Shown: piece by piece, positions 42,762 through 46,212 of the stretch
Layout: each line of letters begins with the position of its first letter
Position numbering within the stretch: the stretch's first letter is position 1
Origin: an uncultured Candidatus Saccharibacteria bacterium
Lineage (GTDB): Bacteria; Patescibacteriota; Minisyncoccia; Phycocordibacterales; UBA12088
Assembly (NCBI GenBank): GCA_964521185.1
Contig: CAZFRC010000002.1
Span: forward strand, 7,779 to 71,778
DNA length: 64,000 bases
Direction of reading: 5' to 3'
Translations under genes and position numbers: made by a program
Notes under the pieces: generated by a model
Seen by the model: the letters and a program-made list of their open reading frames with translations, nothing else
Told to the model about the DNA's origin: nothing
Database searches by the model: none

Positions 42762-45700
42762 AACTACAAGAGCATGCGGGGGATGCCTTGGATCCAAATG
42801 GCGATGAAGGACGCAGCATGGCGGCGATACGCTTCGGGGAGGTGCCTAGCAACCGACAATCCGGAGATGTCCGAATGGGGAAACCCGATACGGTATACCC
42901 GTATCATTTTGCAGTAATGCAATTTGCACACCCAGGGAACTGAAACATCTTAGTACCTGGAGGAAAAGAGACCAATACGAATTTCTTTCATACGTGCACG
43001 CGGTTACGCGGATACGTATGAGGAAGTTCATGGAATTTCCCAAGTAGCGGCGAGCGAAACGGAAAGAGCCCAAACCTATGGAGGAGTAATCCATCATGGG
43101 GGTTGTAAGATGACGGAACCTTCCCAGCATGGTGTACTCGATCTCGTATCGAGAACACCATGCTGGGCAGAAGAGAGTTACAAAATTATTCGTTAGTAGA
43201 ACAGACTGGAACGTCTGGCCCCAGAGGGTAATAGCCCCGTACACGAAAACGAGATAGTCTTTCTTATCGTCATTCTTGAGTAACGCGAGACACGGATAGC
43301 TTGCGTGAATCCGCCGGCACTAACCGGCAAGGCTAAATACATTTGGATACCGATAGTGAACTAGTACCGCGAGGGAAAGGTGAAAAGCACTCCGGAAGGA
43401 GGGTGAAATAGAACTGAAACCGCATGCTTACAAGGAGTCGGAGTGGCGAGAGCAATCGAACCATGACGGCGTGCCTATTGAAGAATGAGCCGACGAGTTT
43501 ATGCATACGGCTGGCTAAGGATGATGAATCCGGAGCCATAGGGAAACCGAGTCTGAATAGGGCGATATATAAGTCGTACGCATAAGACCCGAATCTAGAT
43601 GAGCTACCCATGAGCAGGGTGAACGTCGCCGAAAGGCGGCGGGAGGCCCGAACCGGTTGGTTGTTCAACGCCATCGGATGACTTGTGGGTTGGAGTGAAA
43701 AGCTTACCGAATCTAGTAATAGCTGGTTCTCTCCGAAACAGCTTTAGGGTTGGCGTCATGTGTTCCTCTTGGGGGTAGAGCACTGGAAGGGTCAAACAGG
43801 GAGAAATCTCGTTGATCCTATCAAACTCCGAATACCAAGAGCTTAACAGCATGGCAGTTAGACCGTGGGGGCTAAGCTTCACAGGTCGAAAGGGAAACAG
43901 CCCAGATCGCCAGTTAAGGTCCCTAAATCCATGTTCAGTGCATCACAAGGAGGTGAGATTTCTTAGACAATGAGGATGTTGGCTTAGAAGCAGCCACCAT
44001 TAAAAGAAAGCGTAACAGCTCACTCATCGAGAGATCTTGCGCCGAAGATGATCGGGGCTTAAACATGGTACCGAAACTGCGGATTGTACTTTATTTCGAT
44101 ACAGTACAGTGGTAGGAGAGCGTTCTTAATCGCGATGAAGGAGAAGGGAGACCAACTCTGGAGCATTAAGAAGTGCAAATGTCGGCACGAGTAACCGCAA
44201 GGCAGGTGAGAATCCTGCCCGTCGAAATGCCAAGGTTTCCTTCGCTATGATGATCAGCGAAGGGTTAGTCGATCCTAAGGGGATGGCGAATGCCGTACCT
44301 GATGGACATACGGTTAATATTCCGTAACTTCCACGTTATTCGATGGGGGGACGGAAGACACAAGAAGACGCATCTTATTGGATTGATGTCGATTGGATAA
44401 GAGTTGCTATTTAGGAAAATCCGGATAGCGCAAGACTCGTTCCTGTCGAAAGGTTCGACTTCGGTCGGACTGATGTTTTTGAAGAGCTTCCCAAGAAAAA
44501 CCTCTATGATTAATAACGCGGAATTCGTACCGTAAACCGACACAGGTGGCAAAGGTCGAGAAGACCAAGACGAACGAGTGATAGCTCCCCAAGGAACTCG
44601 GCAAAAAAGCGGCCGTAACTTCGGGATAAGGCCTGCCCCACACCAACTTTGGTATTGTGTTTTTGATTGCACAATCAACGCCAGGCAGCGTGAACAATTT
44701 ACGCTGGTGGACGTGATTTTGCAGCAAACATTTTTGAAACACAATGCAACGATACCAAAGTTGGTGTGGGGCCGCAGCGAAAGTTTCTCAGGCGACTGTT
44801 TATCAAAGACACAGCTCCCTGCAAACTCGTAAGAGGAAGTATAGGGGGTGACGCCTGACCAATGCCGGAAGGTCAACCATGGAGGGTCGAGTGCCGTAAG
44901 GTATTCGGCTGGACTATGTAAGCCCCGGTCAATGTCGGCAATAACTATAATTGTCCTAAGGTAGCGAAATTCCTTGTCGGGTAAGTTCCGACGCGCACGA
45001 ATGGCGTAACGACTTGAGAACTGTCTCGGGGAGTAGCTCGGTGAAAATGCAATACCGGTGAAGATGCCGGTTACCCGCGAGTAGACAGAAAGACCCCAGG
45101 AGCTTTACTGCAACTTCGTATTGGCAATACGGTTTGTCTGCGTAGCATAGGTGGCAGAGGTTGAAGTGATTCTTTCGGGAATCATGGACTCGTCAGTGAA
45201 ATACCACTCTGATTGACGGTATTGTCTAACCGGTTTCGAAAAACGAAACCGAGACATTGCGTGGTGGGCAGTTTTGTTGGGGCGACATCCTCCTAAAGAG
45301 TAACGGAGGAGTCTAAAGGTCCTCTAGGCGCGAATGGAAACCGTGCCGATAGTGTAAGAGCATAAGAGGGCTTGACTGCGAGGCGTACATGCCGAGCAGA
45401 TGCGAAAGCAGAGTCTAGTGAACCGACGGTACGCGTTAGATGCGGCCGGAGATTAACGGATAAAAGTTACCCTGGGGATAACAGGCTAGTTCCGCCCAAG
45501 CGTCCATAGCGACGGCGGAGTTCGGCACCTCGATGTCGGCTCACCTCATCCTGGGGCTGGAGAAGGTCCCAAGGGTATGGCTGTTCGCCATTTAAAGAGG
45601 TACGTGAGCTGGGTTCAAACCGTTCAGATGCTGAAATTCGGCATTTGAACAGTTTGAACCCGAGGAGAATGTGAATTGAACCATCATATTCGAAAAGACA

Positions 45701-46212
45701 TCAATCACGGCGGCACAGTACAGGAATGTACGGTGCATACGTCAACTGGTATCGGTAAAACCCGACGTGACAACACGGGGTAATACCGAGGGAATTTCGA
45801 TTTTTAAGCAATAGGATGCACGCATTCATTGTTAAAATATCGGGAAGCCCGTAGAGACTGAATGTTGACCACCGAGAACCGGTGAAGTTACAGTCCATAC
45901 TTCTAGTAATAGAAGGGTATATGCGTGAGACAGGTTGGTTCTCTATCTGTCGCGGGCGTTGATTCTTGAGAAGATTTGCTCCTAGTACGAGAGGACCGGA
46001 GTGAACTGACCTCTGGTGTATCGGCTGTTTTGCCAAAAGCATTGCCGAGTAGCTATGTCGGGAATGGATAACTGCTGAAAGCATCTAAGCAGGAAGCCAG
46101 CTTCAAGATTAGGAATCGTTGAGGCCCCTACGAGATGAGTAGGTTGATAGGCGTTAGGTATACACACAGTAATGTGTTTCGCCGAGACGTACTAATTCGC
46201 CAAAGTTGTTTC
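42762..46212 (+). rRNA. rrl: 23S ribosomal RNA. It is about 3450 nt including a ~300-nt intron-like insertion and lineage-specific helix expansions; the ends are approximate.
   Basis: Conserved blocks: GGATGCCTTGG...GATGAAGGACG, ACCGATAGTGAAC-AGTACCGCGAGGGAAAGGTGAAAAG, GACTGTTTATCAAAGACACAG, GGATAACAGGCT, and GCTGAAAGCATCTAAG. Confidence 0.95.
45624..45923 (+). other. Candidate ORF-less group I intron or intervening sequence within 23S. It lies between GGGTTCAAACCGT and CGTGAGACAG, the PTC-proximal region, near E. coli position ~2590.
   Basis: A ~300-nt insertion relative to the universal 23S. It contains an R-like GTAGAGACTGAATG and an S-like TTACAGTCCATAC that can pair as P7 (GACTG/CAGTC). 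It ends in G and the 5' exon ends in T. Confidence 0.5.

Follow-up and report, generated by a model that had tools for sequence, protein, structure and literature searches.

The 23S ribosomal RNA (rRNA) gene carried on the window examined here (the whole stretch of 64,000 nucleotides analysed from contig CAZFRC010000002.1) is interrupted by 300 nucleotides (nt) directly after the base equivalent to U2593 of Escherichia coli 23S rRNA (E. coli positions carry the prefix Ec below). This insert is, with high confidence, a compact group I intron without an open reading frame (ORF), which belongs to a large family specific to this site (L2593) and resides in a Patescibacteria-like host. An earlier note on the same DNA had described a discrete insertion with a group I-like core beside the peptidyl-transferase region, and model scores, covariation and homologues all agree with that description.

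For placement of the insert, the gene was compared with the Rfam bacterial large-subunit rRNA model, which left approximately 304 nt unaligned between ...GGGUUCAAACCGU and GACAGGUUGG. When it was aligned with E. coli rrlH by MAFFT, the gene showed an insertion of exactly 300 nt, 45624-45923, between Ec2593 and Ec2594, as the earlier note had estimated. The surrounding sequence reads ACCGU-CGUGAG, with the insert falling exactly after Ec U2593, and helix 93 (H93) is thereby split between U2593 and C2594. The ends are also as previously noted, with the upstream exon closing on T (U45623) and the insert on G (G45923, the omega-G). The junction predicted for the ligated exons, including the exon variants of this organism, was found uninterrupted in 13 metagenome contigs, whose 23S genes are 76-86% identical to that of the window. 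It might be argued that H93 has been expanded in this particular lineage and that no discrete mobile element was inserted, given that expansion-like inserts are present elsewhere in the same 23S. The probability of this is negligible in view of the exact boundaries, the insert-free junction in the 13 metagenome contigs and the group I model matches; alignment, which the earlier note had thought might turn the insert into a helix expansion, instead revealed a discrete insertion.

Relatives were collected from genomes representing one species each, by searching for the 5' exon with a base other than C directly after it; at least 120 matches were returned. Most of the matches listed come from metagenome-assembled genomes (MAGs) of Patescibacteria/candidate phyla radiation (CPR) bacteria, with some from Acidimicrobiia and others, and at least 97 loci contain an insert of 213-840 nt before CGTGAGACAG. 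A covariance model, R1, was built from the alignment of 27 compact relatives, with the window excluded. When R1 was run against the 64-kb window, a single strong match was obtained at 45705-45929, covering the full length of the model (1-191) with a score of 150.5 bits (E = 7.7e-38). At least 59 family matches score at or above 100 bits, ranging from 102.9 to 173.8 bits, and the window intron ranks 22nd, in the middle of this range. The search with the Rfam group I model RF00028 that the earlier note had proposed gave a full-length match (model 1-253) of 30.3 bits (E = 5.4e-6) in an E-value scan of 45560-45990, an interval in which no Rfam group II family was matched up to an E-value of 10. 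The placement by RF00028 of its first two hairpins on 45650-45700 was dropped, as it contains many non-pairs. With these two E-values, and a minimum free energy (MFE) z-score of -7.1 for the region, the match lies far beyond chance.

The structure itself was derived in two ways. RNAalifold, applied to the 27 relatives without the window, recovered P10, P2-P6, P8 and P9, with compensatory change in 30 of 42 pairs. In an alignment of the window with 24 relatives (25 members), 93.1% of cells of the full structure are paired, compared with 34-42% in slid-partner controls, and compensatory changes are seen in 44 of 68 pairs; helices with such changes include P2, P3, P5, P6, P7, P8 and P9. The core is complete, comprising P2-P9, the P3/P7 pseudoknot and GNRA loops on P2 and P9. 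The R-like and S-like strings pointed out earlier are present (GTAGAGACTGAATG, 45851-45864, and TTACAGTCCATAC, 45888-45900), and the P7 helix drawn between them, GACTG/CAGTC, could be confirmed as GACUG (45856-60) with CAGUC (45891-95); one of its pairs is AU in 17 of the aligned members, GC in 8 and broken in none. J7/3 is only 3 nt (AAU) and there is accordingly no P7.1/P7.2. What was found is thus a full group I core and not a simple hairpin of the RNase III-type intervening sequence (IVS) kind, replacing a helix tip without any catalytic core. The R1 score within the family range and the covarying structure identify the window intron as a bona fide member of a large, divergent L2593 family. 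Its ribozyme core is at most 72% identical to that of any of the 24 aligned relatives. Coordinates of all features are collected in Table 1.

By the established group I mechanism, splicing would be started by exogenous guanosine, bound in P7, attacking after U45623. The omega-G at 45923 would then take the place of the guanosine, and the freed 3'-OH of the exon would attack after G45923. Ligation would produce ...ACCGU-CGUGAG..., restoring H93 beside the peptidyl-transferase centre.

The internal guide was located directly 5' of P2. Its 3' half, GCGG (45710-13), forms with exon CCGU a 4-bp P1 containing a G45710·U45623 wobble, and its 5' half, UCACG (45705-09), forms with CGUGA of the 3' exon a 5-bp P10, which RNAalifold also returned from the relatives alone. 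The 8-mer CACGGCGG at this position is invariant in the family members listed, and is present in at least 64 of the 97 listed inserts, which are assigned to the same family as the window intron, while the distance from the guide to the 5' splice site ranges from 57 to about 300 nt. The last base of the guide follows exon base Ec2591: among the L2593 insertions listed, CCGU is combined with GCGG in at least 67 and ACGU with GCGU in at least 15, with one mixed case. In a member of a second family at the same site (L066), only 4 nt separate the guide from the 5' splice site, and the long 5' hairpin described below is missing. As this intron aligns end to end with R1, the guides of the two families occupy homologous positions, and the 5' module represents an insertion into L1. 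Judged from these sequences, the first family is the same ribozyme as the second with a module of 80-200 nt added in the P1 loop, and the predicted catalytic P1 is that of the UCACG-GCGG guide and not of ACAGUUUGAAC.

The module that precedes the guide has a defined order in the window (45624-45661), with hairpin H1, the dinucleotide AC and element X lying upstream of UCACGGCGG. In relatives, compensatory changes are found at 9 of 10 positions of the H1 stem (alignment columns 17-26 with 101-110). Element X is complementary to the 5' exon, and at least 9 of its 10 pairs can form in 64 of 65 listed family members, whereas the mean best match in shuffled sequence is 7.6. The A or G found in the exon at Ec2588 is matched by U or C in X in all 25 aligned members; mapped onto a tree built from the ribozyme core, this covariation needs at least nine concerted switches. 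Where the host exon has U at Ec2586, X contains the A that pairs with it. Across the family, the exon bases bound by X read GGGUUCARAC. In combination, exon 45611-45623 and intron 45624-45661 fold into a 24-bp hairpin with one mismatch (-35.7 kcal/mol, z -9.2). Within this hairpin, the pair involving U2593 is UA in 22 aligned members, UG in 2 and another combination in 1, and that involving G2592 is GC in 24 and GU in 1.

Between X and the guide is a linker (45662-45704) with ends that are conserved in the family, GAGG...AAGACAUCAA, around an optional hairpin. No pairing partner was found for GAGG...AAGACAUCAA. The linker is never shorter than 21 nt in the members listed, a length compatible with pseudoknot formation. 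The loop of hairpin B (45675-45683, AUUGAACCA) contains UUGAAC(C) for a third time, again as a complement of the 5' exon, and this copy was considered as a second exon-binding site. It is probably incidental, because two or more UUGAAC copies upstream of the guide occur in just 5 of the 65 listed members, and in 3 of the other 4 the copies are spaced by about 9 nt, at the transition from H1 to X.

The earlier note had paired the exon with ACAGTTTGAAC and taken ACAGUUUGAAC as a possible internal guide, with A-U at the cleavage site in place of the canonical G-U. The hairpin so drawn is real, being the 24-bp structure above, but ACAGUUUGAAC is not the internal guide: the cleavage site has its canonical G45710·U45623, and the A-U pair belongs to a separate exon-binding hairpin. 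That the long hairpin nevertheless acts as the catalytic P1, with cleavage at the U-A pair, is very unlikely. It is very stable and conserved, and of the 64 scorable members listed, 58 have an A or G facing U2593, with which it can pair. Against this, the invariant UCACG-GCGG already supplies the canonical G·U and a 5-bp P10 directly 5' of P2, covariation across families links its last base to exon base 2591, and the homologous second family has a guide of this type only, with no long hairpin. Furthermore, the sequence 5' of A45649 is unable to pair with CGUGA as P10. In the Tetrahymena ribozyme, the G·U wobble is a recognition element and U-A is strongly impaired, which also counts against cleavage at a U-A pair. 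For these reasons, the long hairpin was rejected as P1 once the UCACG-GCGG guide and the cross-family covariation had been found.

As the exon-X helix and P1 cross in sequence order, the two may coexist as a pseudoknot on a continuous exon strand, or the hairpin may form in the precursor and open by 2-3 bp. In either case, the 5' exon would be tethered to the intron by X, in a pseudoknot stacked on P1 or in a precursor hairpin in which local opening lets CCGU move onto GCGG. Anchoring by X would keep the peptidyl-transferase strand from competing rRNA folds and would hold the 5' exon between the two splicing steps. It was speculated, tentatively and with the balance of probability somewhat on the other side, that the intron uses a bipartite, pseudoknotted exon guide, in which GCGG and X hold 14 consecutive 5'-exon bases (Ec2581-2593, including U2585) and the hairpin with A opposite U is an "off" conformer that switches locally onto GCGG. 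If so, the X anchor would be functionally analogous to the pairing of exon-binding and intron-binding sites (EBS-IBS) in group II introns, and ORF-less copies could gain target specificity for reverse splicing into rRNA. In the literature searched, no structural account of the 5' module, or of an intron-encoded exon-binding hairpin that covaries with its exon, was found.

Several points weigh against parts of this interpretation. The RF00028 score falls below the gathering cut-off of that model (50 bits), and an Rfam scan at gathering threshold reported rRNAs and transfer RNAs (tRNAs) but no intron; a single Rfam group I model is known to under-score some subgroups. P1 is just 4 bp, and the competing hairpin of -35.7 kcal/mol pairs the same exon GU with AC. 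With so short a P1 set against a far more stable structure, a protein or a refolding step may be required for efficient self-splicing. The search pattern fixed G2592 and U2593, so that covariation cannot separate the two pairings at these bases, and for the same reason sequence cannot decide between pseudoknot and precursor hairpin. We infer splicing and exon ligation at this locus from what is established for group I introns, and a role for X as anchor, pseudoknot or switch from the sequences compared. Assignment of the host to Patescibacteria is based only on 23S similarity.

Two further alternatives concern the fate of the transcript. The Simkania L1931 intron is reported to be unspliced, and would be a precedent for a bacterial 23S group I intron that persists in mature rRNA. 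There is scarcely any probability that the same applies here, as 300 nt of structured RNA in H93, beside A2602 and U2585, would be hard to reconcile with peptidyl-transferase function. In addition, a recent survey states that CPR 23S insertions are removed from transcripts (Tsurumaki et al. 2024, PMC11270868). The earlier note had held that the insert must be spliced or processed out as a fragmentation IVS for the ribosome to function; the need for removal stands, whereas fragmentation finds no support. In the latter scenario, RNase III would cut the 24-bp hairpin and/or other stems, the 23S pieces would remain unligated and the core would be a relic. RNase III could plausibly cut the long hairpin that spans the 5' junction, the same 23S has hairpin-type insertions near Ec228 and Ec278, and the survey describes short RNase III-type IVSs in CPR 23S genes (PMC11270868). 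A relic would decay, however, whereas the core helices, guide, P10 and omega-G have all been kept intact, under compensatory selection that extends over dozens of hosts. Cutting at the hairpin would also leave intron sequence on H93 near the catalytic centre, and the insert lies within H93 (Ec2593/2594), away from 23IS2 and 23IS4, which the survey equates with the known RNase III IVS sites (PMC11270868). Fragmentation is accordingly regarded as highly improbable, and excision as a group I intron is the preferred reading.

Mobility of the family was examined through its coding potential. At least six longer relatives (L102, L114, L054, L052, L049 and L100) contain an ORF of 143-173 amino acids (aa) inside P6 that matches LAGLIDADG_1 and has I-CreI, I-MsoI and I-CvuI among its homologues (E about 1e-20 or better). 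These enzymes represent the endonuclease lineage classically associated with site 2593. The ORF reads through P6', J6/7 and the 5' strand of P7 in L102 and L054 at least; here the ribozyme core sequence CCCGUAGAGACU encodes ...PVETK, so the same bases serve both protein and catalytic RNA. As the earlier note had stated, there is no homing-endonuclease ORF in the window copy: no ORF longer than 35 aa is present on the + strand of the insert, and no tblastn trace of the LAGLIDADG gene of these relatives was detected in the intron or elsewhere in the window. The window copy is endonuclease-free and, having no homing-endonuclease gene, can only persist by vertical descent or through an endonuclease supplied in trans.

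Three side observations were made during these searches. R1 also detects further group I introns, at 24-98 bits, elsewhere in the same CPR 23S genes (L007, L029, L037, L054, L063, L084 and many other loci), with three or more matches in some genes; the window 23S has just one. Several metagenome 23S sequences without the L2593 intron (L126, L129, L132 and L134) show a break in their alignment to the window approximately 90 nt upstream of L2593. The position of this break, equivalent to about 45531 of the window (Ec ~2500), suggests an insertion at another known intron position in these genes. Finally, six pattern matches (L001, L012, L046, L091, L093 and L106) are not insertions and have T instead of C at Ec2594, as in TGTGAGACAG and TGCGAGACAG. 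They include a Thorarchaeota archaeon and a Caldilineaceae MAG, and are natural variants of a nearly universal base.

The closest known counterparts are the CPR introns at position 2593, listed in the survey among sites 23IS12-14, where group I/LAGLIDADG_1 insertions are frequent in CPR 23S genes (PMC11270868). Site, host type and intron class are the same, and LAGLIDADG_1 genes are present in the relatives of the window intron as in that survey. The window copy differs in being ORF-less, and the survey sorts insertions by Rfam and Pfam, with RNA architecture, a distant guide and an exon-binding module undescribed in the passages considered (PMC11270868). L2593 introns with LAGLIDADG genes are also known from thermophilic cyanobacteria (Synechococcus C1 and C9, and Thermosynechococcus elongatus); these are about 745 nt long, always have the endonuclease gene, and possess an extension of about 65 nt forming P7.1/P7.2 and a short P2 (PMC1995217). 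With the cyanobacterial and chloroplast L2593 introns, the window intron shares the identical site after U2593, and the endonucleases of its relatives are I-CreI/I-MsoI homologues. It is distinguished from the cyanobacterial introns by a J7/3 of 3 nt without P7.1/P7.2, a 9-bp P2 with a GNRA loop and an 81-nt L1 module, so that the ribozyme type differs even though site and endonuclease lineage are shared. The chloroplast L2593 intron is that of the Chlamydomonas large-subunit rRNA gene (Cr.LSU), which encodes I-CreI.

Looser likenesses exist to two other systems. GNRA loops on P2 and P9, a short P5, and the absence of P5abc and of P7.1/P7.2 are visible in the window intron. In these respects it may resemble the IC3 introns of bacterial tRNA genes (Azoarcus tRNA-Ile and cyanobacterial tRNA-Leu), which presumably share the compact core, the lack of P5abc and the GNRA loops on P2 and P9, and presumably have very similar J6/7-P7 (GUAGAGACU) and J8/7-P7' (GAAG..AUAGUCC) sequences. 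It differs from these introns in its rRNA host gene, in a P1 that is not an anticodon stem and in a large L1 module without counterpart. Woodson and Cech reportedly described an alternative 5'-exon helix, P(-1), in the precursor of the Tetrahymena rRNA intron. This is a loose analogue of the exon-X helix, as a 5'-exon helix next to the splice site that competes with P1 or sets it up; in P(-1) both strands are exon, whereas in the window one strand is intron-encoded, conserved in the family and covarying with host rRNA.

Table 1. Coordinates of the intron, its structural elements and other insertions in the 23S rRNA gene of the window
Feature	Position	Strand	Remarks
Host gene, 23S rRNA	42756-46215	+	3460 nt against a 2925-nt model; RF02541, 2389.5 bits; aligned to E. 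coli rrlH
End of 5' exon, Ec2581-2593	45611-45623	+	Last base, U45623, is the cleavage-site U
GGGUUCAAAC in 5' exon	45611-45620	+	Partner of element X
Exon CCGU	45620-45623	+	Exon strand of predicted P1
Group I intron, 300 nt, ORF-less, site L2593 (after Ec U2593)	45624-45923	+	Alignment and model matches
H1, 11-bp hairpin from first intron base	45624-45648	+	45624-45634 with 45638-45648, loop AAU; MFE
AC dinucleotide	45649-45650	+	Opposite exon U45623 and G45622 in long hairpin; contains the A-U pair of the earlier note
Element X, GUUUGAACCC	45652-45661	+	10-nt complement of exon GGGUUCAAAC, one variable base after AC
Hairpin B in linker, 8 bp, loop AUUGAACCA	45667-45691	+	Variable; MFE; missing in shortest relatives
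Conserved linker motif AAGACAUCAA	45695-45704	+	Just 5' of guide
Internal guide UCACG-GCGG	45705-45713	+	82-90 nt into intron
P2 hairpin	45713-45736	+	GGAA (GNRA) loop 45723-45726; 8 of 9 pairs compensatory
P3, 5' strand GUCAAC	45741-45746	+	Pairs with 45864-45869; 6 of 6 pairs compensatory
P4	45752-45789	+	45752-57 with 45784-89, encloses P5; RNAalifold, R1, alignment
P5	Within P4	+	45761-63 with 45778-80; extension 45766-69 with 45774-77
P6	45790-45850	+	GGG 45790-92 with CCC 45848-50, long P6a/b extension; MFE, RNAalifold, alignment
J6/7 GUAGA		+	Conserved, directly 5' of P7 5' strand
P7, 5' strand GACUG	45856-45860	+	Pairs with 45891-45895; 100% paired, 2 covarying pairs
P3, 3' strand GUUGAC	45864-45869	+	
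P8 hairpin CACCG/CGGUG	45870-45884	+	45870-74 with 45880-84; 5 of 5 pairs compensatory
P7, 3' strand CAGUC	45891-45895	+	After J8/7 AAGUUA
P9 hairpin	45900-45915	+	45900-05 with 45910-15, GUAA (GNRA) loop 45906-45909; 6 of 6 pairs compensatory
Omega-G, final intron base	45923	+	G in all 25 aligned members
CGUGA, start of 3' exon, Ec2594-2598	45924-45928	+	Exon strand of P10
23S insertion, 54 nt after Ec228	42977-43030		Very stable hairpin, z -6.5
23S insertion, 99 nt after Ec278	43081-43179		Very stable hairpin, z -7.0
23S insertion, 56 nt after Ec1709	44638-44693		
23S insertion, 38 nt after Ec1769	44754-44791		

Compared with E. coli, the window 23S contains four insertions besides the intron (Table 1, last four rows). 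None of the four matched a group I model, and they could be expansion segments or RNase III-type IVSs. Over domains V-VI, the exons are 83-87% identical to Patescibacteria MAG loci, compared with 71-75% for E. coli, Acidimicrobiia and Chloroflexi. The window has a GC content of about 46%, and several ORFs near the intron-bearing 23S gene have no Pfam match. The rRNA genes are unlinked and in an unusual order, with 23S-5S (42756-46440) separated from 16S-tRNA-Ile (58058-59861) by approximately 11.6 kb of protein genes, including those for FtsW/RodA and a glycosyltransferase; downstream of 16S-tRNA-Ile, neither tRNA-Ala nor a second 23S gene was found in the window. Elsewhere in the window, a class I aminoacyl-tRNA synthetase of 1171 aa with isoleucyl/valyl-type Pfam domains (10905-14420, + strand) is interrupted at residues 516-679, midway through its catalytic domain, by an inserted histidine-phosphatase domain (His_Phos_1, E 5e-27).

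As an ORF-less intron at a documented hot spot, in a lineage known for rRNA introns, the window element adds one copy and is not surprising. Its insert must be removed before this 23S sequence is used for phylogeny, probe design or ribosome modelling. Because the Rfam gathering threshold misses this type of intron, surveys that rely on the threshold under-count such introns. The point of wider value is element X, which is found family-wide and covaries with host rRNA, and is the only feature that would perhaps repay experiments. It leads to the hypothesis, open to test in vitro with the 300-nt RNA, that a very short P1 within strongly structured rRNA is presented by an anchor or switch encoded in the intron.

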